Shown here: piece after piece, positions 1 through 11,257 of the stretch
Position numbering within the stretch: position 1 is the stretch's first letter
Layout of the letters: each line of letters begins with the position of its first letter
Origin: a virus
Lineage: Duplodnaviria > Heunggongvirae > Uroviricota > Caudoviricetes
Direction: 5' to 3' (one strand)
IMG/VR virus record: IMGVR_UViG_2734482772_000014
DNA: 11,257 nucleotides
Notes under the pieces: model-generated
Told to the model about the DNA's origin: nothing
The model's database searches: none
The model's input: the letters and a program-made list of their open reading frames with translations, nothing else
Translations under genes and position numbers: made by a program

Positions 1-282
1 CTACCTTTGCCTATTGCCGCCATTTAACCGGAAGGCGTTACCGTTCGGTTGCGCTATCCCCATGCGGTGTTGCGTTTCGGTAACAGCTTTATGCAGGTCG
101 CCAAAGTCCTCAACCTTCACGGGCGGGCGCTTCACGTTCTCAAGACACGTTTCACGGCGGCGCTTTATCCATTCCCGATCATCGGCCTCGGTGCATAACA
201 GCATGACTTCCATCCATCGCGCTGCGGCGCGTCGGTACATCCCTTTTGCTTCCAGATCCTCGGCTTTACTGTCGTTTACCAT
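1..282 (-). CDS. PerC-family-like small transcriptional regulator (93 aa)
   Basis: Complete ORF: ATG at 282..280, stop TAG at 3..1. SD GGGGGAG 6 nt upstream of ATG. N-terminus MVNDSKAEDLEAKGMYRRAAARWMEV...REWIKRRRETCL matches my recollection of the PerC/Pch family pattern (A..LE.KG..RRAA.RW..V). Family call is from memory, not a search. Confidence 0.5.
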   Translation of the reverse strand: MVNDSKAEDLEAKGMYRRAAARWMEVMLLCTEADDREWIKRRRETCLENVKRPPVKVEDFGDLHKAVTETQHRMGIAQPNGNAFRLNGGNRQR

Positions 283-336
283 GTTTATCTCCCCCAGAAT
301 GGCGTTTCATCGTCGAATGGTGGGCGTTGGTCAAAA
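263..336. repeat. Copy A of a ~75-90 bp duplicated 5' leader (SD + first 8 codons MVNDSKAE + upstream CCATTC direct repeats)
   Basis: Near-identical by eye (a handful of mismatches) to 1205-1296; contains start of the PerC-like gene. Confidence 0.8.
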
Positions 337-495
337 TCATCAGGGGTATTATATGACTCCCATCCCGGCGCGGATTGTGTTGCGTGGCCTCCTGTGTGCC
401 TGTAGCCTGGCTGATTCCGGTAATACTGCGGAGTTAGGTCTACCGGCATAGCTTACCCGTGGAGAAATGAATCATCGAATTAGTTTGGTCGGGAG

Positions 496-1167
496 TTATT
501 CCACCAGCAAAAATGGCGTTGCCCGGTCTATGACGTTGATGCCAATTAACGAGCTAACATTTCGACCATCCACAATGCTATCCCGTTCAAGCAAATGCGC
601 TATTTTTTCTACTTCATACCAGTATTGAGCCATGAGGGCTTTGGTCTTTTCAACGAGTTTAGAAAGCATTAACTCCCTGTTAATTAGCTTATCTGTAGCG
701 CAGATTAAATCGAGCATGTCATTTACGTTAGCCATGTCATAGCGATGAGGTAGCGAATACTTTTTGTTGAAAATATCGTTGTTTTCGTAAAGGGCTTCGC
801 TTACTGGTCCGGCGAGGGATACAAAAGCGGCCTTTTTTGCATCGCGCTTTATGCCATCCGCATAGTAACGTATGAAAGGGATAACTTTACCATTCTGCCC
901 AACTACACCAGATTTACTATCCCGCAAACGCCCGAGATCGTGGCTGTGAATTATGCTGTGTTTAACAACGCCCAAACACTTGGCCTCATGTACATGTTTG
1001 CCAGCAACGTAACCGTATTCATCCATAACGGCGATAACCTGTACATCTAAGCGAATAAGCCATGCAGCTACTGCATGTCCCGCTTCGTGGAATGCTACAC
1101 ATCGTTTACCATCACCTATCCAGTTATAGAACATTTCCGGTTTATATATCTGGTGAATGGCTACCAT
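496..1167 (-). CDS. Standalone zinc metallopeptidase-domain protein, FtsH/M41-like (223 aa), no AAA+ module
   Basis: HExxH motif as FHEAGHAV (FtsH has HEAGHA). Downstream SLAGPVSEAL and DMANVND resemble FtsH GGRLAEEI and ASNDI segments. SD GAGGG 6 nt upstream of ATG 1167..1165, stop TAA 498..496. Visibly lower GC than flanks (not computed). Confidence 0.55.
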   Translation of the reverse strand: MVAIHQIYKPEMFYNWIGDGKRCVAFHEAGHAVAAWLIRLDVQVIAVMDEYGYVAGKHVHEAKCLGVVKHSIIHSHDLGRLRDSKSGVVGQNGKVIPFIRYYADGIKRDAKKAAFVSLAGPVSEALYENNDIFNKKYSLPHRYDMANVNDMLDLICATDKLINRELMLSKLVEKTKALMAQYWYEVEKIAHLLERDSIVDGRNVSSLIGINVIDRATPFLLVE

Positions 1168-1223
1168 TACGCGCCCTCGCTTGCTAGTGAGGCCAGAGCC
1201 TCTGCTTTACTATCGTTGACCAT
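1167..1223 (-). CDS. 18-codon upstream ORF (MVNDSKAEALASLASEGA), stop TAA overlapping ATG of the M41-like gene (TAATG)
   Basis: ATG at 1223..1221 preceded by SD GAGGGAG; first 8 codons identical to the PerC-like N-terminus. Could be a coupling leader peptide or a recombination remnant. Confidence 0.3.
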   Translation of the reverse strand: MVNDSKAEALASLASEGA

Positions 1224-1296
1224 GTTTATCTCCCTCAGAATGGTGTTTCATCGTCGAATGGTGGGCGTTGGTCGTATTCATCACGGGATGGCTGCT
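1205..1296. repeat. Copy B of the duplicated 5' leader, upstream of the M41-like gene
   Basis: Same sequence as 263-336 with a few substitutions; the duplicated start codon opens an 18-codon ORF. Confidence 0.8.
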
Positions 1297-1669
1297 GCGC
1301 ACGTCTCAGCGCGTCCGTTGCCTGTCCCCGCTGTCCTGCCTTCCCGCCGGGGCGTACCGTTCTGGCGCTGATCACACTGTCGGCTACTACCTGATACCCC
1401 TGCTGTGTACCTCCGTCCTGCCCTGTCCACTGATTGATCTGCATCGCTCCGGCAACACTGACTAAATCGCCTTTAACGTGTCCTGCCAGTGCGTCGGCCT
1501 GTTTGCCGAATGCCACCACGCCCAGCCAGAAAGTAACCTCTCCGCCCTCTGCTGTATGGCAGGGCAGTGCCACCGCTAACCGTCCCATTGCCATGCTTGT
1601 ACCGTTTGCTGTGGTACGGGTCTGGGGATCTGCCACCAGCCGCCCGTATGCTGAAATTTGTGCTGTCAT
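1235..1669 (-). CDS. ssb: Single-stranded DNA-binding protein (SSB family, 144 aa)
   Basis: OB-fold pattern aligns by eye with E. coli SSB (G.L..DP..R...NG...A; W..VV.FGK.A....L.KG; W.D..G), Gly/Gln-rich linker, and acidic C-terminal tail FDDETPF (SSB: FDDDIPF). Confidence 0.75.
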   Translation of the reverse strand: MTAQISAYGRLVADPQTRTTANGTSMAMGRLAVALPCHTAEGGEVTFWLGVVAFGKQADALAGHVKGDLVSVAGAMQINQWTGQDGGTQQGYQVVADSVISARTVRPGGKAGQRGQATDALRRAQQPSRDEYDQRPPFDDETPF

Positions 1670-2287: not shown

Positions 2288-4729
2288 TCAATCATCACTC
2301 TGCCCGCTCTCCACACCGTAAGCACGGGGCATGAACTCCTCAGCCTTCTCGTTATAGCCAACGTTGGTTTGCGCTCTGCCGTTAATGCTTCTCGTCAGGT
2401 AGCTGGCTCGGTACTCTTTTGCTGCTGATTTTATGGCGCGTGAAAACTTATTGACGGAAAGCGGTTTACCCAAACCGTGATACTCCATAAACGCCAGATA
2501 AAGATGATAAAGATACGTCCTCGGCTCTGGCTGGCCTGCCCATGTACCTCCGCCCATCATCATGCCTTTGGGTTCGTTCATGAAAAAAAGCGCCGCACAC
2601 ATATCGACAACCGGATCCGTGCCGCGTTTAACCTCTAGCGCCTCCTGCGAATCGCGCTGCTCTAGTAATAGTTCCTTTGCTTTGTTCTGGTCGGAAAAGG
2701 TGGTTAGCAGGTGGCGGATAATCACCGGGATTTCTCGCCTGATTTTTGCTGTTAAATCCGGGTCTTTGTCTGCGTCTGATACCGGGTTATTAAACGGGAA
2801 TATCACGCGGCGGCGGGCAATGCCCCCGTTTCGCTCCGTGAATGTCATCGGCTCGTTATTGGTTGCCATAACAACGGCATTTATCACGGTTGTGAACTGC
2901 TTTTCATATTTCCCATCAATCTCTACCGGATCGCCGCCCGTAATGGCTTTAATCCCCGCACCCTCTCCAACATAGCGGGTCTGGTCAGGCATAATAATCA
3001 GGCTTTTTCCTACGAACTGCGCCCGTCCCCGTGCGGTGTCCAGCGTCATCATGCTACCGCTGGCGGTGTTGTGTTCACCTGCCAGCGTGGTTGCTATGCT
3101 GCTGAATACGGATTTTCCACTGCCGCCCTCGCCAGTTATCTCAATGAATAGCTGCCAGTCGTGACGCTTCGCCAGCACCATAAACAAGGCTGCTTTGATA
3201 CGCTCGGCCTTATGATGGTCGCCAGCCGTTGCATGATTCAGCCAACTGGTAAAATTGGGGGCGCTGGTGGTAATATTTTCCCCCGGCGCTGGCGGGGTGT
3301 AGGTGATCCCATTGTGGTTCATCAGCCAGTTACCCGGCGAATGGGCGGAAAACGTCTGCGTAGCGAGGTCATAAACGCCGTTATCAAAACCAATCAAATC
3401 CCCGCTCCGCTCACCAATTACCGGTATTTGCAGCTTCATGGTTGCGACAACCGATTTAATCCCCTTTTCGGTGTAGTGGGCTTCGTGCTCGTCGAAAATT
3501 GCCACCATAACCCTTTCTAATTCACTGTCTGGTAGCTTCTCCCATACGCCAGATTCGTAGCAGTAAACAGTGCCACTATCAGGGTTAACCGCCAACATAT
3601 CCCATCGAGATGAAAGCAACCGCGCTTTCTGGCTGGCTGCCATTTGTGCAATATCTCCGACTTCGGCTTTACGGCGGGATTTACCGCCCGCAATGGCCTG
3701 TAGTTGTGGTTTCACGGCTTCCCCCTGAATCTGGTACATCGAATCGTTAAACGCAGCCGTAGCGACTTCCAGCCCGTTTTGCTGGCGGTAGTCGTCCCAG
3801 TCGGCTTTGTAGTCTGTCGGCGGCAGCGCCACCCAGCCAGCCACGGATAAGGCGGCTTTCTCTGCGGCATCTTTGCCCGTGTTCGCCTGTTCGTCCTGTT
3901 GGTGGTCGTTATCTGCGGCAATGATAATTTGCGACTGCGGGTGTTTCCGGCGCATCACTTCGGCAACGGGTAGCAGGTTGCCCGCATCAATGGCGCACAC
4001 TGTCAGCGCGTCAGGGCGCATCAGGTGGACTGATAAAGTGGTTGCCAGCCCCTCGGCAATAATCACCGCCTGCGGCTGTTCCGGTGCGTTAACGGCGTGA
4101 TATGCCCCGCGCTTTGCTGAACCTGTCAGGAGTCGCTTCTCTCCCTGCGGTGTAATGGTTTGCGCTGCTGCCACTGCGCCGGATTCGTCCACCAGCTCCA
4201 GCAATAACGAACCATCCGGCATAACCGGATAGTTAAACCCGGTCAGCCCTTTTGATTGCAGGTAATCAGATTCTCCCTGTGTGGCACTCTGGCGCATTCC
4301 GGCATACAGACGGGCAAACGTAGCCCTTCGCTGCTCTGCATCCTCTGCTGCCTGTTTCTGGCGCTCCTGCTCACGCTGCTGGCGGTCAGCTTCCAGTTGC
4401 TCTCTTCTATGGCTCGCTGCCACCGGGTCGGTTTCCGCTGCCCGGTAATCAATACCCAGCACATCAGCGGCAAGCCTTGCCGCTTCTGTGGTGTCGCAGT
4501 TGTTCACCTTCTTAATCAGGTCTAAACCGTCACCAGCGCCACACTGATTGCAGATAAAGCTACCGCGCCCGTTGTCGTCGAATCTGAAACGGTCTTTTCC
4601 ACCACATGCAGGGCATGGAGAATGGCGGCGCGATGAATCAGGCACGTCGATAGACAATCCAGCCAGCACATAAGGCCAGCGCCCGGCGGCGGCACTGGTC
4701 ACTTCGCGGATAATGTCGATATTACGCAT
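2288..4729 (-). CDS. P4 alpha-like bifunctional primase-helicase (813 aa from ATG 4729)
   Basis: Zinc ribbon CPACGG...CNQCG; Toprim signatures (IIAEG..., IIIAADND); Walker A GEGGSGKS in the C-terminal helicase region. SD AGGGGG upstream of ATG 4729..4727, placed just after the stop of the 113-aa gene (4724..4722). Confidence 0.88.
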   Translation of the reverse strand: MRNIDIIREVTSAAAGRWPYVLAGLSIDVPDSSRRHSPCPACGGKDRFRFDDNGRGSFICNQCGAGDGLDLIKKVNNCDTTEAARLAADVLGIDYRAAETDPVAASHRREQLEADRQQREQERQKQAAEDAEQRRATFARLYAGMRQSATQGESDYLQSKGLTGFNYPVMPDGSLLLELVDESGAVAAAQTITPQGEKRLLTGSAKRGAYHAVNAPEQPQAVIIAEGLATTLSVHLMRPDALTVCAIDAGNLLPVAEVMRRKHPQSQIIIAADNDHQQDEQANTGKDAAEKAALSVAGWVALPPTDYKADWDDYRQQNGLEVATAAFNDSMYQIQGEAVKPQLQAIAGGKSRRKAEVGDIAQMAASQKARLLSSRWDMLAVNPDSGTVYCYESGVWEKLPDSELERVMVAIFDEHEAHYTEKGIKSVVATMKLQIPVIGERSGDLIGFDNGVYDLATQTFSAHSPGNWLMNHNGITYTPPAPGENITTSAPNFTSWLNHATAGDHHKAERIKAALFMVLAKRHDWQLFIEITGEGGSGKSVFSSIATTLAGEHNTASGSMMTLDTARGRAQFVGKSLIIMPDQTRYVGEGAGIKAITGGDPVEIDGKYEKQFTTVINAVVMATNNEPMTFTERNGGIARRRVIFPFNNPVSDADKDPDLTAKIRREIPVIIRHLLTTFSDQNKAKELLLEQRDSQEALEVKRGTDPVVDMCAALFFMNEPKGMMMGGGTWAGQPEPRTYLYHLYLAFMEYHGLGKPLSVNKFSRAIKSAAKEYRASYLTRSINGRAQTNVGYNEKAEEFMPRAYGVESGQSDD

Positions 4730-5063
4730 GGTTGCCCCCTGCCACGGTCGCGCCCATGTCTTTAACCATGCTTTGCCATATCTCACGCCCTACGTCAGTC
4801 AATCCGTCATTAGTGACGCAACGATCAAGAATCTCGATCCCCACGGTTTCCCACTGCGGGTAGGACACTTTCATGGCTGCCAGTGTGTAGCTATCGATCA
4901 GGCTGCGAACGCCTTTTACTCCATTGACGATTTCCACACGGATTTGCTGGCCTGCCGCGTCAACCATGAAGTAATTGCCACCATTGATAGCCGTAATGTG
5001 GTTATACAGTGCCGACGCATACTTATTCGCCAGCGCATTAAGTCGGAAATTTTTAGTAATCAT
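4722..5063 (-). CDS. Hypothetical protein (113 aa)
   Basis: SD GAGGGGG upstream of ATG 5063..5061; ends 4 nt before the primase SD/ATG. No recognised motif. Confidence 0.5.
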   Translation of the reverse strand: MITKNFRLNALANKYASALYNHITAINGGNYFMVDAAGQQIRVEIVNGVKGVRSLIDSYTLAAMKVSYPQWETVGIEILDRCVTNDGLTDVGREIWQSMVKDMGATVAGGNHA

Positions 5064-6270: not shown

Positions 6271-6446
6271 GCCGCCACCTCACGAACGCGGGTAATCTGG
6301 ATGTGGGAAAGGCGTTCATTTCTGGCCTGATTTAGCGCCTCAGCTTTGGCGCTGATCGCGCTGCGGGCGTCAACGATATAAACGAACTCGACTAATTCGC
6401 CGCTCCGGGCGGTGGCGCATCCTGCAACACGGAAGTAATTAAGCAT
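6267..6446 (-). CDS. Hypothetical small protein (59 aa from ATG 6446)
   Basis: ATG 6446..6444 preceded by AGGGGG; overlaps the stop of the Icd-like gene by 8 nt (ATGCTTAA). The ORF track's longer version begins at a TTG. Confidence 0.4.
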   Translation of the reverse strand: MLNYFRVAGCATARSGELVEFVYIVDARSAISAKAEALNQARNERLSHIQITRVREVAA

Positions 6447-6631
6447 GTGCGCCCCCTGTGCGAATACGTCCGGCAAAAAAGCAAACGTGATCCCGCGCCA
6501 GAATGCGGCGGGCTTCCTGCTCGGTCTCTGCGGCGATATGGTGAATTTTGGCGGTAATTGTCGGGCAATCGCGGCGAACTGCGGCGATAATCCAGATAAA
6601 TTGCGGTTTTTGGGTAGGGGTAGTAGCCATT
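6439..6631 (-). CDS. Icd-like small protein (63 aa, MATTPTQKPQFIWIIAAVRR...)
   Basis: Strong SD AAGGAGG 7 nt upstream of ATG 6631..6629. Size and position (immediately after a C4/CI-type leader) match Icd of P1/P4-like elements. Family call from memory. Confidence 0.45.
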
Positions 6632-6654
6632 ATGGCAGCCTCCTTTGTGTTTAA

Positions 6655-6845
6655 GGAGTCACCGCATAAGGTTCCAATCTTAATAGTGGCGGTGACGTTA
6701 GCAGGGTTGGAACTACCGGACACAAAGGAAACCGGCCTACGCGAACGTAGCCCCACTAACGCCACCATAGATACAGTACGGGCAAGGCCGCTGATTTGAT
6801 GTGCGTGGTGATCGGACACAAAAAAAGACGCTTTCGGCGTCTGTG
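6655..6845 (-). ncRNA. Putative C4/CI-type antisense-RNA leader
   Basis: On the minus strand, two direct repeats UUUGUGUCCG(A/G)U (plus coords ~6811-6824 and ~6717-6730) are complementary to the Icd-like RBS ACACAAAGGAGG (plus 6641-6653). No protein-coding signal with an SD in this interval. Boundaries approximate. Confidence 0.3.
6819..6842 (-). terminator. Short hairpin + U7 (AGACGC-CGAAA-GCGUCU-UUUUUUU): terminator or leader structural element
   Basis: Minus-strand stem-loop followed by 7 U. The stem is only 6 bp, so it may instead be part of the antisense-RNA leader. Confidence 0.3.
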
Positions 6846-7039
6846 TCGCCCTTAGTGTGTTCGGGGTTCCAATCCCGGTTGCTGATTTTGCAGCAACGCT
6901 TGGACTATAACAGCTTTTCTCTGCTAGGTGGTCATACCAGATAAAACCGTAACCCTTTAAGAGTTTTTCCTGTGCACGGCTCACCATCTTTTTGTTGAGG
7001 GTAAGCGCCTCGCGTACTGGTAACGGAACTCCGGGCGCT

Positions 7040-7085
7040 GCGGTATCAATATCAGGTTTTATAAGGTTGTAAGGGTTAACATTTG
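7040..7085 (-). promoter_or_regulatory. Putative promoter/operator region with twin GTTAAC palindromes
   Basis: GTTAAC-ATTT-GTTAAC at 7065-7080, followed on the minus strand by TTACAA...TATAAA/TATTGAT candidate -35/-10 elements. Sits in the non-coding gap upstream of the antisense leader. Confidence 0.25.
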
Positions 7086-7129
7086 TTAACAGGCTAGCCA
7101 GATTAAAGGCTTCTTTCTGGGCGGCAGGT

Positions 7130-7312
7130 TCATTCAGTATCACGGCGCACCTCCACGAACTCATTAACGAATCTCTCCAAAGGCTGAACACATGGCGACT
7201 GATAGCCCTCGCGGTAAAAGGTCACTCGGTTATGCTCGACGCGCTCAACGGTCACTACAGCCCCGTGCGAATCCTTGTAACGGCTTCCCGGCATCGGATT
7301 GTGGTTACGCAT
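7130..7312 (-). CDS. DUF4222-like small protein (60 aa)
   Basis: SD GGAGG 6 nt upstream of ATG 7312..7310; start overlaps the antirepressor stop by 8 nt (ATGCGTAA). Pattern GSRYKDSHGAVVTV...VTFYREGY...C...LERFVNEF resembles DUF4222 from memory. Confidence 0.45.
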   Translation of the reverse strand: MRNHNPMPGSRYKDSHGAVVTVERVEHNRVTFYREGYQSPCVQPLERFVNEFVEVRRDTE

Positions 7313-8114
7313 GGTTTACCTCCAGACGCTTAGCGAGCCAGCGTTGCGACAGGCGGGTGAGTTCTCCTTTGCGCTGCTCATATTCCATGCCCATATCAAT
7401 TAACGTGATATTGGTGCTTTCGAGATAGGCGAGGTGTTCAAGCTGTGCTGCGTTCATGCTGTCCCGTGGTTCGCCAGTAATGCCATTTGCCTGCGCCCAC
7501 TGCTTCGCCGTCATGCCACCCAGCACGATACGGGCGATCATGTTGCTCTCGTTGCTGTAGTGGCGAGCCTGCGTCTGTTTACCCTGTTCTGCGCGGGCGC
7601 TTTCCAGCGCTACGCACATCGGTTTAAACAGGTTTGCGGCACCGATACGGGCTTTTAGCTGGCGACGATAGCGGGCGGCGATTTCAGGCACGCTACGCTG
7701 TAGTGCTTCCTCGCACTGGATGAAATAACGGCGGATAGCGCGACCCTGCTCGTTGCGTTCAACCATTGCCACTTCTTTAGCCATATCCAGCGATAGCAGA
7801 TAATCATGTTCTATTTGTTGGCGAGTTTTTGCGCTCGCCAGTTTTGGCGTGCTCAAATTTTCAACACGGATAAAATCGGTTCCGGCAATAAAACCGTACT
7901 GGTCAATTCGGCCTTTAATCCAGTTAGTGAAGTCGCGGCCCACCCCCAGCGCCTTATGCAAGGCTCTGGCGCTAACAATATTGGTTTCACGCCCGCCAAT
8001 GCGTCCGGCAATAACGGGAACAATAGCGGCAAAGTCGTCGCCGTTAATTACTCCCGTGTTAACGTTGGGTTGCGGGGCGGCCTCAGAAATTAATCTGCTT
8101 TTTTCGATAGTCAT
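7305..8114 (-). CDS. AntA-like phage antirepressor (269 aa)
   Basis: N-terminal VPVIAG...VSARALHKALGVGRDFTNWIKGRIDQYGFIAGTDF matches the AntA/AntB N-terminal domain pattern (VSAR.LH..L.V...F..WIK.RI..YGF....DF). SD GGAG upstream of ATG 8114..8112. Confidence 0.6.
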   Translation of the reverse strand: MTIEKSRLISEAAPQPNVNTGVINGDDFAAIVPVIAGRIGGRETNIVSARALHKALGVGRDFTNWIKGRIDQYGFIAGTDFIRVENLSTPKLASAKTRQQIEHDYLLSLDMAKEVAMVERNEQGRAIRRYFIQCEEALQRSVPEIAARYRRQLKARIGAANLFKPMCVALESARAEQGKQTQARHYSNESNMIARIVLGGMTAKQWAQANGITGEPRDSMNAAQLEHLAYLESTNITLIDMGMEYEQRKGELTRLSQRWLAKRLEVNHA

Positions 8115-8127
8115 ATTTTCGGCTCCG

Positions 8128-8559
8128 TTATGCGGCGGTAAATGCGTCTGGGTAGAGGTTGAGAATGTCGGCTATTTCAGACTTACTAAGCCCCTGATAA
8201 CCCCCTGCGGCGGCGTTGCTGTTAACCAACTGGATAACTCGCATCACATCACCACGGCCCACAAATCTGTAGCGTAGGTGTGCGCCAATGCCATCGGGGT
8301 TCTTTTCGTCTATACGCTCAAGCTGAATATCAAGCCTGCGCTCTAACTCGCTGGCGTAGTTCCTTCCAGACGAAAGGCGGCAATAACGCAGAATATCGTT
8401 TTCTGTCCATCCCTCTATACCAGTACGCAGCATATAGACGCGGGCGCGGTGTTTCTTTGGGGTACGCCTAGGTACTTGTACCGGGCTGGTGGTCGGCGTA
8501 ATATCAGACGTGCGAATATCTGAGTTAGCCGCCTGTAATGGGCGGTTTTTCTTTTTCAT
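8128..8559 (-). CDS. Hypothetical basic protein (143 aa from ATG 8559), coupled to alpA
   Basis: ATG 8559..8557 overlaps the alpA stop (ATGA). Lys/Arg-rich N-terminus suggests nucleic-acid binding. Family not recognised. Confidence 0.5.
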   Translation of the reverse strand: MKKKNRPLQAANSDIRTSDITPTTSPVQVPRRTPKKHRARVYMLRTGIEGWTENDILRYCRLSSGRNYASELERRLDIQLERIDEKNPDGIGAHLRYRFVGRGDVMRVIQLVNSNAAAGGYQGLSKSEIADILNLYPDAFTAA

Positions 8560-8762
8560 CAAGCCACCTTTCCCCGACGTTCTGCCAGCCAGTTGTTAAT
8601 CTCTACCGCATCAAAGGCGGTAATCTTCTCGCCCAGCTTTACCGGACGTGGTAGTGAACCGTTTCTTACTTTACGGTCGATGGTGGATACACTAACGCCC
8701 AGTAATTCAGCCAGGCGGAAGCGTCTGATATAGCCTTTTGTAGGAATAGTGTCGGTGTTCAT
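8559..8762 (-). CDS. alpA: AlpA/Vis-family phage transcriptional regulator / excisionase-like (67 aa)
   Basis: Winged-HTH signature RLAELLGVSVSTIDRKVRNGSLPRPVKLGEKITAFDAVEINNWL typical of the AlpA family; position next to a P4-type integrase. Confidence 0.8.
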   Translation of the reverse strand: MNTDTIPTKGYIRRFRLAELLGVSVSTIDRKVRNGSLPRPVKLGEKITAFDAVEINNWLAERRGKVA

Positions 8763-8876: not shown

Positions 8877-9842
8877 CTACCCCTTACCGTTGGCGGCAGC
8901 ACGTAAGTGTCTCAAAATCACATCTTCATTTGTGATTGCTAACGGTGGAATTTCGTCTTTATGAGCCACTATGCAATCCCGCCACTTCTCAGGGCTTATT
9001 TCTTTCTTTTTGCCACGGCATTCATCAGGATACTTTGACAAAAGATATATTGCAGATTTGAAAAGTTTTTCCCTGTTTTCAGCATGTCTCTCGGCATTAT
9101 GGTTGCTATTTTTTATTTCAGGTATTAGTTCCTGTTCTACCGCCATTTCGTATCGTTTTTTGCTCTTAGCTGCGTCAAAACTTCCATTAACCTTTGCGTC
9201 ATGAAGGTATTCTAAATCAGCCTTTGTTATATAAATGTTTTTATCTGACAGGCTACTCAGGTGAATTTGGGAACTTTGCATTTTGAATTTATATAGATCA
9301 CAATCAAATGTTGCTTCAAGTCGCACATATGGTTCTCCACATTCTTGTGAATGATAATGTCGTGTTGTTCTACCGCGTACACGCAACAATCCACATGCAA
9401 TTGATTTTCTTACAATAAAAGAGTTTTTGCCAATTTGTTCAAAAACATTTTTATTGTCGCTGTCTTCAACTGTCAGTGGTTTATGTGCATAAAATAGCTC
9501 ATAAGCACCGCTTTCAGATGCTGGGATATAAACTTCGTTGCTTGCGCTGGTAATAAGAAAAGGAAATGTAAACCTTACTTCTTCTGGGTACATAAGTAAT
9601 AAATCAGTTATAAAATTAGCATCTTTTTTGAAGTGGATGGTGGCATCAGATTCAATGAAATCAAGAAAGTCAGCATAGACATAAAAGTCTATATGTAGTC
9701 TATCTTTCCAATGCCATATATCATCAATTTCACAATTTAATAATTTTGATGCTCGCTCTATCGTGCAGTAGTCCAAAGGTGGAATACCTGATTCCTGCCA
9801 TAAATTTCTATGCACCACAGTTGTTTCATGAGAGTCGTTCAT
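8877..9842 (-). CDS. Orphan hypothetical protein (321 aa), AT-rich cargo between integrase and alpA
   Basis: SD AAGGTGA 7 nt upstream of ATG 9842..9840, stop TAG 8879..8877. Markedly AT-rich versus neighbours (by eye). No Walker A, HExxH or obvious hydrophobic TM stretch; C-terminal third is Lys/Glu-rich. Confidence 0.65.
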   Translation of the reverse strand: MNDSHETTVVHRNLWQESGIPPLDYCTIERASKLLNCEIDDIWHWKDRLHIDFYVYADFLDFIESDATIHFKKDANFITDLLLMYPEEVRFTFPFLITSASNEVYIPASESGAYELFYAHKPLTVEDSDNKNVFEQIGKNSFIVRKSIACGLLRVRGRTTRHYHSQECGEPYVRLEATFDCDLYKFKMQSSQIHLSSLSDKNIYITKADLEYLHDAKVNGSFDAAKSKKRYEMAVEQELIPEIKNSNHNAERHAENREKLFKSAIYLLSKYPDECRGKKKEISPEKWRDCIVAHKDEIPPLAITNEDVILRHLRAAANGKG

Positions 9843-9937: not shown

Positions 9938-11197
9938 TTAGTTCGCCCTTCTGAGAGGCGTTACGTTGTAGTCTTTTCCGCTTTCCAGTGCCACCAGCAG
10001 ATCAGCCCACTGTGCCAGTGCTGCTTTACGCTCATCAAAATACTGATGGCGGTTATAAATCCCCTCTACGCCCTTAATGCGATGATTGAGGCATCGTTCC
10101 GCCACGACAGGATCAACACCCAACGCTGCTAAATGAGTACGTGCGGTGCGTCGGAAGTCGTGAATCGTGAAATTAGGCACATCCGGCATTTCGGCGCGAA
10201 CCTTAGCCAGTGCTACGGGCAAAGTGCTTTCCTGAATATGTGGGATCATTCTGTTTTGCATCTTCCTGGCTGGAAGCACCCATGCGCTATTACATGAAAA
10301 GGTGTGTAGCTCTCTCAACCATTCAACGGCTGGGGAAGGTAGAGGTATATCAATAGGGTCTCCGTTTTTGCTGCGTTCTTCCGGCAAATGCCATACCGCA
10401 CCATCTAAATCAAACTCTTCCCATCGTGCGGCGCATAACTCCATCTTACGAACGCATAGTGCCAGCAATAGCTTAAATGTCAGTTCGTTCTGGCGGCTGA
10501 ATCCTTTTGCGGTGCGCATAGCCTCGAATAGCCTGATAAGCTCATCGCGAGTTAGCCAACGGTCGCGGGAAACCTCTTTACCACCAGCATCAGATACTTC
10601 AAACGCTGAACAAGGGTTTATCTCCAGAGCGTGGCGTTTTATCCCGTAGTCAAAGATACGGCGTGTCCAGCGTAATACATCTGTTGCTATCGTTGGTGCT
10701 CCTCGGTCAACGATACCTTTCAACATGTCGTCAATGTGGCGTGGCTTAACGTCCTCTACCTTCATATGCCCAATGCAGGGGTTAATATCCTTATCAATTC
10801 TCCGGCGAAGGATATCGGGATGTTTCCATCTCGGAAGTATCTGGCGCTCGAAGTATTCGGAGGCCAGATCTGAAACACGCATGGCGTTTTTCTCAGCCTC
10901 CATTTTTGCCAGTGCTTCAGCTTTTCGTTCCTGTTTCTCTGCTGCTACGTCATAGCCAAGAGCAACTCTGGCTGACAGCTCTTTGGCTGTCTCTCTGGCC
11001 TTTGATAGTGATAGCTCGCTATACGAACCAATTAGCATGGCGCGGGACTTCCCTGCGAGTTTATAGCGGAATCTCCATGTGGGGGTTTTGTCGGCTTCAC
11101 GGTAACGTAGGTATAAACCGTTACCGTCTGCCCGCCCCTCGAATCGCTCTCCGCTCTTAATCCATGCGCGGATCTGCATGTCTGTTAGTTTTGGCAT
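9938..11197 (-). CDS. int: P4-type tyrosine integrase (419 aa from ATG 11197)
   Basis: N-terminus MPKLTD...GLYLRY...WRFRYKLAGK...LIGSY is characteristic of P4-family integrases; C-terminal HDFRRTARTHL (HxxR) and GIYNRHQYFDERK (catalytic Tyr region). The ORF stays open to the window edge (11257), but the MPKLTD start is the conserved one. Confidence 0.88.
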   Translation of the reverse strand: MPKLTDMQIRAWIKSGERFEGRADGNGLYLRYREADKTPTWRFRYKLAGKSRAMLIGSYSELSLSKARETAKELSARVALGYDVAAEKQERKAEALAKMEAEKNAMRVSDLASEYFERQILPRWKHPDILRRRIDKDINPCIGHMKVEDVKPRHIDDMLKGIVDRGAPTIATDVLRWTRRIFDYGIKRHALEINPCSAFEVSDAGGKEVSRDRWLTRDELIRLFEAMRTAKGFSRQNELTFKLLLALCVRKMELCAARWEEFDLDGAVWHLPEERSKNGDPIDIPLPSPAVEWLRELHTFSCNSAWVLPARKMQNRMIPHIQESTLPVALAKVRAEMPDVPNFTIHDFRRTARTHLAALGVDPVVAERCLNHRIKGVEGIYNRHQYFDERKAALAQWADLLVALESGKDYNVTPLRRAN

Positions 11198-11227
11198 TTT
11201 GCGAATATCCAAACTTTGAATAGGGGG

Positions 11228-11251
11228 TGTACCCAAAGCAATGTACCCAAA
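11228..11251. repeat. Direct repeats TGTACCCAAA x2 upstream of int
   Basis: Copies at 11228-11237 and 11242-11251 (14-bp period), within 50 bp of the int start. Candidate Int arm-type sites or int promoter operator. Confidence 0.4.
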
Positions 11252-11257
11252 CCTCAT

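Follow-up and report, generated by a model that had tools for sequence, protein, structure and literature searches.

What can the protease half of an FtsH-type machine do without its motor? The question is raised by the viral record IMGVR_UViG_2734482772_000014, which was analyzed over its whole length of 11,257 nucleotides (hereafter the window). One of its genes encodes a protein of only 223 residues with an HEAGH motif near the N-terminus, and the start codon of this gene overlaps the stop codon of an ORF of 18 codons. FtsH-type proteases are ATP-dependent machines, and their zinc sites are deemed to be of use only if unfolded chains are supplied by an AAA+ ring. A sequence-only reading of the locus had described the protein as a standalone M41/FtsH-type peptidase, the gene as accessory and the short ORF as its coupled leader. 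Here, we consider what the protein is, which element carries it, how the short ORF came about and which role would fit the evidence best.

The carrier island

On the minus strand of the window, the genes run in the order integrase, 321-aa ORF, AlpA, AntA, DUF4222, Ash/Icd-like gene, five small ORFs, primase-helicase, 100-aa ORF, ssb, protease gene and perC (Table 1). The gene content expected of a PICI, namely an integrase, an AlpA-type regulator and a primase-helicase within about 11–13 kb, was found, and Pfam scans detected no phage structural or lysis genes among the window ORFs. Judged from its gene content, the window is a complete PICI-type satellite. Its place in E. coli chromosomes is between yicC and dinD. 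The architecture matches that of published E. coli PICIs (PMC11773190; PMC13612085), in which the position behind the primase is the typical packaging location (PMC11773190).

Table 1. Coordinates of the features discussed in the text, counted from the first nucleotide of the window
Feature	Position	Strand	Basis
PerC-family regulator gene, downstream of the M41 cassette	1..282	minus	Pfam PerC 1.8e-28
Direct repeat copy 1: 3' end of the ssb' remnant, spacer, true perC start	252..346	.	Repeat search
ssb' remnant, 54-codon ORF ending ...DDFDQRPPFDDETPFWGR, 3' end of a second ssb allele, downstream of the M41 cassette	285..449	minus	ORF listing, repeat comparison
Standalone M41/FtsH-type zinc peptidase-domain protein, CDS of 223 aa	496..1167	minus	ORF listing
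D144 codon, predicted third zinc ligand	736..738	minus	GAC read from sequence; profile alignment to FtsH Asp
HEAGH zinc-binding/catalytic motif (H27, E28, H31; aa 27–31)	1075..1089	minus	CAC GAA GCG GGA CAT read from sequence; invariant in the close family
18-codon chimeric ORF MVNDSKAEALASLASEGA, then stop (MVNDSKAE + ALASLASEGA, then stop)	1167..1223	minus	Sequence; comparison with L002, L020, L027
Translation-initiation region CTGGCCTCACTRGCAAGCGAGGGCGCGTA, with GAGGG Shine-Dalgarno-like element	1168..1195	minus	Near-identical in the window, L002, L020, L027
Direct repeat copy 2: ssb 3' end, spacer, perC-type start; upstream border of the recombinant junction	1193..1287	.	Repeat search, 89% identical to copy 1
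Complete ssb, 11 nt upstream of the chimeric 18-codon ORF	1235..1669	minus	Pfam SSB 4.3e-15
Primase-helicase (Zn-ribbon/Toprim/D5)	2288–4786	minus	Pfam
Ash/Icd-like	6439–7191	minus	Pfam
DUF4222	7130–7312	minus	Pfam
AntA	7305–8114	minus	Pfam
AlpA	8559–8762	minus	Pfam
Unknown low-GC 321-aa ORF	8877–9842	minus	ORF in window
Tyrosine integrase	9938–11257	minus	Pfam

Family assignment of the 223-aa protein

The ORF, its length and the N-terminal position of HEAGH are as the sequence-only reading had given them, and so is the lack of ATPase motifs: Pfam and NCBIfam scans of the protein found neither an AAA+/Walker motif nor a membrane segment. Nor was an FtsH-type ATPase or AAA match found in any island ORF when all window ORFs were scanned with Pfam. 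In place of the N-terminal membrane anchor and fused AAA+ module of the M41 layout, 26 residues precede HEAGH. Searched directly, the protein scored 21.1 bits against Pfam Peptidase_M41 (PF01434; residues 21–41 covered), below the curated cut-off of 29.9, and 15.4 bits against the NCBIfam FtsH model TIGR01241, whose cut-off is 600; the Pfam and NCBIfam matches span only about 21–25 residues around the motif. It had no match in PHROGs, and no family of PADLOC-DB 2.0 matched at E ≤ 1. The NCBI pipeline already labels it "peptidase M41 family protein", and its annotation as an M41 peptidase was thus known.

Wider profiles extend the similarity to the whole domain. A profile built from 17 close homologs matched exclusively FtsH and AFG3L2 chains in the PDB, over two collinear stretches, and allowed the C-terminal helical bundle to be aligned with that of FtsH/AFG3L2. 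When used in an exhaustive HMMER search, the same profile recovered 186 representative clusters (50% identity, E ≤ 1e-3), mostly of standalone proteins of 150–220 aa. Pfam Peptidase_M41 is matched by 37 of 40 sampled relatives (best E 4e-16), and a 40-relative profile, which includes the window protein itself, aligned with the protease domains of FtsH, YME1 and AFG3L2 over their entire length at 9e-20 to 7e-14. The FtsH-like segments that had been suspected downstream of HEAGH are therefore seen with both profiles, as two stretches with the narrow one and as a whole domain with the wider one. The curated cut-offs are not reached directly, and homology to M41 is established only via intermediates.

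Both the HEXXH motif and the protease-domain fold expected of an M41 peptidase were found in the protein, and the residues of the catalytic site are strongly conserved. Across 40 distant standalone relatives in the profile alignment, H27, G30, H31 and G120 are invariant, and E28 and D144 are at least 90% conserved; D144 is also invariant in the close family. When the 40-relative profile is compared with FtsH, the D144 column falls on the Asp of the "END" segment, which is the third zinc ligand in FtsH structures. In M41 peptidases this ligand is an Asp about 75–115 residues downstream, in the helix after "LAGxxAE", a placement with which that of D144 agrees. Structural alignments of the predicted monomer gave about 11–18% identity to FtsH-family proteins. 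The active-site helix is followed by an insertion (about 50 residues, aa ~41–100) that is specific to the family and has no FtsH counterpart; pLDDT falls below 50 in roughly one third of the model, to which the 41–75 part of the insertion belongs. We conclude with high confidence, on the strength of profile and model comparisons, that the protein has an M41 fold and an intact catalytic site and that the motor is absent, in agreement with the earlier description of a standalone M41/FtsH-type peptidase.

Homologs, selection and base composition

Close homologs, 72–96% identical, occur in Escherichia, Salmonella, Enterobacter, Citrobacter, Shigella and Dickeya. Among 5,426 complete E. coli genomes the gene was found in 53, always on the chromosome, and the carriers include EPEC E2348/69 and several STEC. 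It had been proposed that disruption in most homologous elements would speak against a function; 51 of the 53 copies are full length and in a single ungapped piece, and the other two are partial. No match to the gene was found in 50,697 phage records or 72,556 plasmid records. One derivative (P0022/L021), in which the N-terminus of AntA is fused to the protease at residue ~44 and HEAGH is gone, is an island deletion remnant.

Nucleotide substitutions were compared between alleles by the Nei-Gojobori method. The dN/dS ratio is 0.19–0.26 between alleles with a dS of 0.23–0.32, and 0.22 between two alleles that are each only about 45% identical to the window protein. Inside the close group the ratio ranges from 0.04 to 0.45, and it is about 0.2 across 10% divergence. 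In other satellites, the family is still conserved at 44–48% identity. These ratios show that the gene is under purifying selection. Its GC content is 41–47%, compared with 56–60% in ssb, a difference already noted from the sequence; the gene is richer in AT than those around it and looks horizontally acquired.

Origin of the 18-codon ORF

The TAA of the short ORF (1169–1167) and the ATG of the protease gene (1167–1165) have one base in common (TAATG). The PerC-like start of this ORF had been recognized as duplicated, and its first eight codons indeed lie inside a 95-nt direct repeat whose two copies are 89% identical (Table 1). The ORF is not a dedicated coupled leader: its 18 codons are a fusion of perC codons 1–8 with the final 10 codons of a 57-aa ORF, which is conserved and as a rule lies in front of the M41 gene. 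The join sits at a short similar stretch (GAGGNTCTGG / AAGGCGCTGG).

Just 3 of the 5,426 complete E. coli genomes share the arrangement of the window, with ssb, leader and M41 gene in succession. The more common arrangement in E. coli, that of L002 and L003, has the M41 gene behind the 57-aa ORF MAISVKPVLISEKQMEAIKKIQEEQRKKSEVGVAPTIHEIARGLMDKALASLASEGA (followed by a stop) and keeps the TAATG overlap. Downstream of the cassette, both arrangements have a 3' remnant of another ssb allele and then perC. The last ~28 nt before the M41 start codon are near-identical in four differing upstream contexts (the window, L002, L020 and L027). The small ORF of E2348/69 has only about 70% identity left in its body, with its tail ALASLASEGA (and stop) unchanged, which indicates that these ~28 nt belong to the protease cassette. 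Since the overlap and the ~28 nt travel with the gene, translational coupling may still be of importance.

We consider it very likely that the M41 gene is mobile satellite cargo and that the 18-codon leader is a scar. In the simplest history, the cassette would have been inserted behind the 57-aa ORF, truncating the ssb of the island, and a later recombination with an ssb-perC island would have given the window form. This illegitimate recombination would have joined perC codon 8 to codon 48 of the small ORF, so that the cassette came to follow a complete ssb directly. As the 95-nt repeats flank the cassette, homologous recombination could remove it again. Cargo slots of satellites may thus be rebuilt by short-homology recombination, of which an 18-codon fusion ORF remains here.

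Conservation of the 57-aa ORF family extends over Escherichia, Serratia, Klebsiella, Raoultella and Erwinia, and the ORF is invariably found after a primase or ssb module, yet it heads differing cargo. In many E. coli islands it precedes DUF2824 (gp14-like), P22_gp7, Inj_translocase (gp20) and P22_gp16, i.e., a full P22-type ejection-protein set; in Serratia it precedes gp20-like and gp16-like genes, and in Raoultella unknown proteins of 605 and 168 aa. With such unrelated cargo behind it, the 57-aa ORF is not a protease-specific partner. The earlier remark that no HTH partner adjoins the protease gene is true of the window but incomplete, because the commoner arrangement has a 57/58-aa ORF upstream, in which no HTH or RHH signal was detected. 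An RHH fold for the 57-aa ORF seemed plausible from its sequence pattern and a two-helix AF2 model, but received no support.

Other contexts of the cassette

The M41 gene and the identical ~28 nt upstream of it occur in three island settings: they follow ssb in the window and L001, follow the 57-aa ORF downstream of the primase in L002 and L003, and lie beside the integrase after p183-p62-58aa in L020, L022 and L027–29. The module int-p183-p62-58aa-M41 is shared by E2348/69-type E. coli islands and a very widespread Salmonella allele. The gene thus behaves as the cargo of mobile elements, as its description as accessory had implied, and it is a mobile single-gene cassette of PICI-type satellites of Enterobacteria.

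Known or probable defense genes lie close to several copies. In L020, RosmerTA is immediately convergent with the M41 gene (RmrA 3.5e-125, RmrT 8e-16); the Salmonella loci (L027/28) have a matching 407-aa HTH-M78 gene and a 213/215-aa neighbor about 1.5 kb from the M41 gene; and AbiD (1e-50) lies 2 kb from the L015 copy. L015 also carries a Neck1/tail-completion homolog two genes upstream, and L014 has baseplate genes downstream. Other neighbors recur with more distant proteases. A p183 homolog, in L013/14 (49% identity) and L015 (40%), precedes proteases that are 44–48% identical to the window protein, and a protein of 102–112 aa follows the protease in Salmonella and L015. In Dickeya and Yersinia, whose proteases are only about 23% identical to each other, a predicted lipoprotein of 352–374 aa (lipobox ITGC, FTGC or LASC) directly follows the protease, and this lipoprotein is also present on the L013 contig.

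The island of the window lineage has none of these recurrent neighbors or defense systems, and the protease is thus evidently able to stand alone. Distant relatives of about 170–190 aa are orphans in ordinary chromosomal neighborhoods, among IS elements or behind an Antitox_RHH gene. With distant members in ordinary chromosomal contexts, the M41 family overall is not confined to conflict loci.

Proposed function and alternatives

We propose that the M41 protein is a cytoplasmic zinc endopeptidase, consisting of the M41 domain only and predicted to be catalytically competent. H27, H31 and D144 would hold the zinc ion and E28 would serve as the catalytic base, and the ~50-residue insertion would take the place of the short β-hairpin region of FtsH. 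Lacking an AAA+ unfoldase and a membrane anchor, the protein could not carry out processive ATP-dependent degradation. Most likely, it would make ATP-independent cuts in a specific, accessible substrate. The active sites of FtsH, however, open onto an enclosed chamber that the ATPase supplies, and an isolated domain may not act on proteins. The cassette would bring its own ~28-nt translation-initiation region and would normally be translationally coupled to the small ORF upstream.

The protein that is cleaved would come from a helper or competitor phage or, during infection, from the host. A part in phage-satellite-host conflict, whether defense or interference with the helper, seems possible but has to be called tentative; it is suggested by the variable cargo/virion-hijack slot, the recurrent defense neighbors and the apparent horizontal acquisition. 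Defense neighbors were seen in only some of the M41 contexts. An ATP-independent M41 protease cassette that acts in phage-satellite-host conflict is the best overall explanation, and the balance for and against it is about even. A bolder version is rather unlikely: ATPase-less M41 proteases would form an unrecognized class of single-gene effectors in this conflict, and the cassette, replacing the P22-type ejection-protein operon of satellites, would act at DNA delivery by, or virion assembly of, the helper or competitor (e.g., through cleavage of ejection proteins), possibly in concert with the lipoprotein, p183 or p102 neighbors, or would hijack host FtsH. A literature search for ATPase-less M41 proteins in satellites returned no paper. 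Should this effector-class reading be true, the FtsH protease domain can be an autonomous, substrate-specific protease.

Exploitation of the helper rather than defense of the cell would also make use of a protease, which would then process or destroy helper virion proteins (P22-type ejection, scaffold or tail-completion proteins) and so favor satellite particles. The M41 gene does occupy the place of the gp14/gp7/gp20/gp16 homologs of sister islands, behind the same small ORF and in the slot described as the PICI packaging location (PMC11773190), and virion genes lie near the L015 and L014 copies. This role in morphogenesis is nevertheless unlikely, given that the widespread Salmonella allele and the E2348/69-type islands place the cassette by the integrase, near RosmerTA and away from the replication module, and that no structural gene stands alongside it in the window. 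In the window, L002, L020, L027 and L013, the M41 start codon overlaps the stop of a small ORF in front of it, which, together with one distant relative (L019) behind a Pfam Antitox_RHH gene, could instead point to a toxic protease that is neutralized or repressed by the small ORF just upstream. A type II TA system would be a conserved two-gene operon with its partner always present, which is not what was found: in the window and in three complete genomes the M41 gene is intact and under purifying selection although just 10 codons of the small ORF survive, such an ORF is missing from the Yersinia and Dickeya copies, L013 and L015 have upstream small ORFs of unrelated sequence, and the 57-aa ORF also heads ejection-protein operons. 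A TA-like toxin is accordingly quite improbable.

We hold it to be just as improbable that the protein docks on, co-assembles with or competes with host FtsH, altering the turnover of lambda CII-type regulators and hence the lysis-lysogeny decision of the helper. FtsH has an established role in the decisions of lambdoid phages, and the protein is homologous to the ring-forming protease domain, C-terminal helices included; yet its low identity to the FtsH family is not that of a recent host capture, the insertion has no counterpart in FtsH, and the strictly conserved catalytic residues point to catalysis of its own. Cleavage of an island or helper-prophage repressor in the manner of ImmA/IrrE, leading to induction, had been raised by the sequence-only reading, and metalloproteases in such a role are common on mobile elements (for ImmA, see PMC10440598). 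It is very unlikely here, for the protein has no Pfam match to Peptidase_M78 (ImmA/IrrE) and its fold is that of M41 instead of M78. Furthermore, no repressor gene is adjacent in the window, the gene lies in cargo regions outside the int-alpA regulatory module, and true M78 proteins (RmrA) are present separately in sister islands. Finally, the gene might be a decaying passenger with no current function in the island, as the rarity of the recombinant window arrangement (3 of 5,426 complete genomes) and the existence of deletion derivatives (P0022/L021 without HEAGH and the two partial copies) would allow. The intact ORF in the window and in 51 of 53 genomes, the dN/dS values within the close group and across 10% divergence, and the conservation of the family down to 44–48% identity in other satellites make this highly improbable.

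Comparison with known systems

The window protein resembles FtsH/M41 proteases (FtsH, YME1, AFG3L2) in the HEXGH helix, the "LAGxxAE" segment, the downstream Asp and the C-terminal helical bundle. In FtsH, an N-terminal membrane anchor and an AAA+ module are fused to the protease domain (PMC9020784), whereas the window protein has neither the transmembrane segment nor the ATPase and starts about 25 residues before HEAGH. Furthermore, FtsH is a core gene, whereas this M41 protein is encoded by a satellite. The chloroplast FtsHi pseudo-proteases, which are among the top structural matches, are likewise divergent FtsH-family members in which the two activities are split. They have kept the ATPase and lost the zinc site, and the window protein is the reverse.

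Standalone M41 domains form at least 3,235 clusters at 90% identity. Bacterial and metagenomic examples (P0043, P0047, P0163) share with the window protein a single domain of about 150–220 aa, HEAGH, LAG and the conserved Asp; most such relatives, however, lack the insertion at aa 41–100, and their contexts are varied and often non-mobile. A fold search also returned one standalone M41 example from a phage, the 214-aa BFVD entry A0A6J5RJ76 of an uncultured phage. No study of any standalone M41-domain protein was found in the literature.

ImmA, IrrE and RmrA (M78) are HExxH zinc proteases on mobile elements as well, and RmrA adjoins the M41 gene in E2348/69-type islands. They belong to another family and fold, and have a fused or adjacent HTH partner that the window protein lacks. 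The Lit protease of e14, a HExxH metalloprotease encoded by a single gene, cleaves EF-Tu when T4 infects the cell. Although the M41 protein gave no match to Lit in the Pfam scan and no sequence relationship was detected, Lit is a precedent for a single-gene, ATP-independent anti-phage zinc protease on a mobile element.

Since the gene is present in EPEC E2348/69 and widespread in Salmonella, direct testing is possible in standard strains. Here the protease half occurs alone, with all catalytic residues kept, under purifying selection and moving among satellites beside known defense systems. If active, it would represent both an ATP-independent mode of action for the M41 fold and a new type of effector in satellite-phage warfare.

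Cargo around the small ORF and beside the integrase

The surroundings of the small ORF (the conserved 57-aa-family ORF that normally precedes the M41-like gene) and of the M41 slot are rich in defense genes. In E. coli E2348/69 (locus L020), a RosmerTA system lies convergent with the M41 cassette and adjoins the integrase of the yicC-inserted islands; it comprises an RmrT of 215 aa (PADLOC, 8e-16) and an RmrA of 407 aa with HTH_3 and Peptidase_M78 domains (PADLOC, 3.5e-125). In Salmonella (L027/L028), a 407-aa gene that matches the latter in size and in its HTH_3 and Peptidase_M78 domains, with a 213/215-aa neighbor, was identified by Pfam alone. Further cargo in these surroundings includes AbiD (1e-50) and, in a Raoultella island, an ABC-type ATPase with HEC-02A, PD-T4-4 and AriA-like PADLOC matches, encoded with a 202-aa partner. 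Within the window, the AntA-family protein shows a match to PDC-S22, a candidate family in PADLOC, over its C-terminal part (aa 178–258; E = 2.7e-10).

On the integrase side, the island seems to have a second slot for variable cargo. The window carries here a 321-aa ORF with the lowest GC content in the island (35–39%), which had no match in Pfam, NCBIfam or PHROG, and whose sole, weak match was to PADLOC PDC-S31 (E = 0.002). At the same position, the sister islands carry other genes, namely hypotheticals of 966, 846 and 651 nt.

Coordinates of the features discussed, by comparison locus or in the window
Feature	Location	Strand	Remark
M41-like protease	window 496-1167	-	
AntA-family protein	window 7305-8114	-	
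321-aa ORF adjoining integrase	window 8877-9842	-	
Second ssb allele, 3' remnant (…DDFDQRPPFDDETPF)	window 285-449	-	
RosmerTA defense system	L020 7014-8881		E. coli E2348/69
407-aa HTH_3 + Peptidase_M78 gene with 213/215-aa neighbor	L027/L028 8137-10004		Salmonella; Pfam only
Further cargo close to small ORF or M41 slot	L007 3384-5310; L015 5753-6679		
Predicted outer-membrane-type lipoprotein, 352-374 aa	L030 6795-7853; L011 7746-8870; L013 265-1332		
~183-205-aa protein	L020 10019-10570; L027 5092-5643; L013 6197-6751; L015 1503-2120		
Chimeric protein P0022, 226 aa	L021 6001-6681		E. coli EC2641
P22-type ejection-protein set	L023-L026 7001-12476		E. coli islands
P22-type ejection genes	L004-L006 6001-10357		Serratia islands

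Recurrent neighbors and remnants of the protease gene

Two proteins recur near the M41-like gene. The predicted lipoprotein, for which no family match was found, lies directly 3' of the gene in Dickeya and Yersinia and is also present on the L013 contig, with predicted lipoboxes ITGC, FTGC and LASC. The lipoprotein-linked proteases of Dickeya and Yersinia share only ~23% identity. The lipoprotein may be a functional partner of the protease or a co-travelling exclusion protein. The ~183–205-aa protein, conserved in its C-terminal half (…AEFMRLVRAV.PKY…DPR.VALDVLRYAPAEAF…) and without a hit in Pfam, PHROGs, PADLOC and PDB, is encoded 5' of the M41-like gene by three divergent lineages. Usually it precedes a 55–62-aa ORF with an N..FW.EQ motif, and in L015 the two form one fused protein.

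In P0022, the AntA antirepressor N-terminus is joined to the protease from residue ~44, and HEAGH is gone. The chimera is the leftover of an island deleted from antA through the 5' end of the M41-like gene; it is still annotated as “peptidase M41 family protein” and is listed on 66 contigs in the protein collection. In the window, the ssb remnant marks where the inserted M41 cassette ends on its downstream side; the TGA stop of this remnant is mutated to TGG, giving readthrough to WGR*. Within the protease itself, a helix at aa 147–169 scored 27.8 bits (cut-off, 22) against the 33-residue Pfam model RPN5_C, almost certainly a spurious short-helix match.

Ejection genes in satellite islands

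Immediately 3' of the 57-aa-family ORF, some PICI-type islands carry P22-type ejection genes. The full set in the E. coli islands consists of DUF2824/gp14-like, P22_gp7, Inj_translocase/gp20 and P22_gp16, the last with an SLT domain in some islands and without it in others; the Serratia islands have only the gp20-like and gp16-like genes. Satellites that bring their own DNA-ejection proteins are worth studying, and similar “DNA transfer” genes have been mentioned for EcCIMP1 (PMC11773190).
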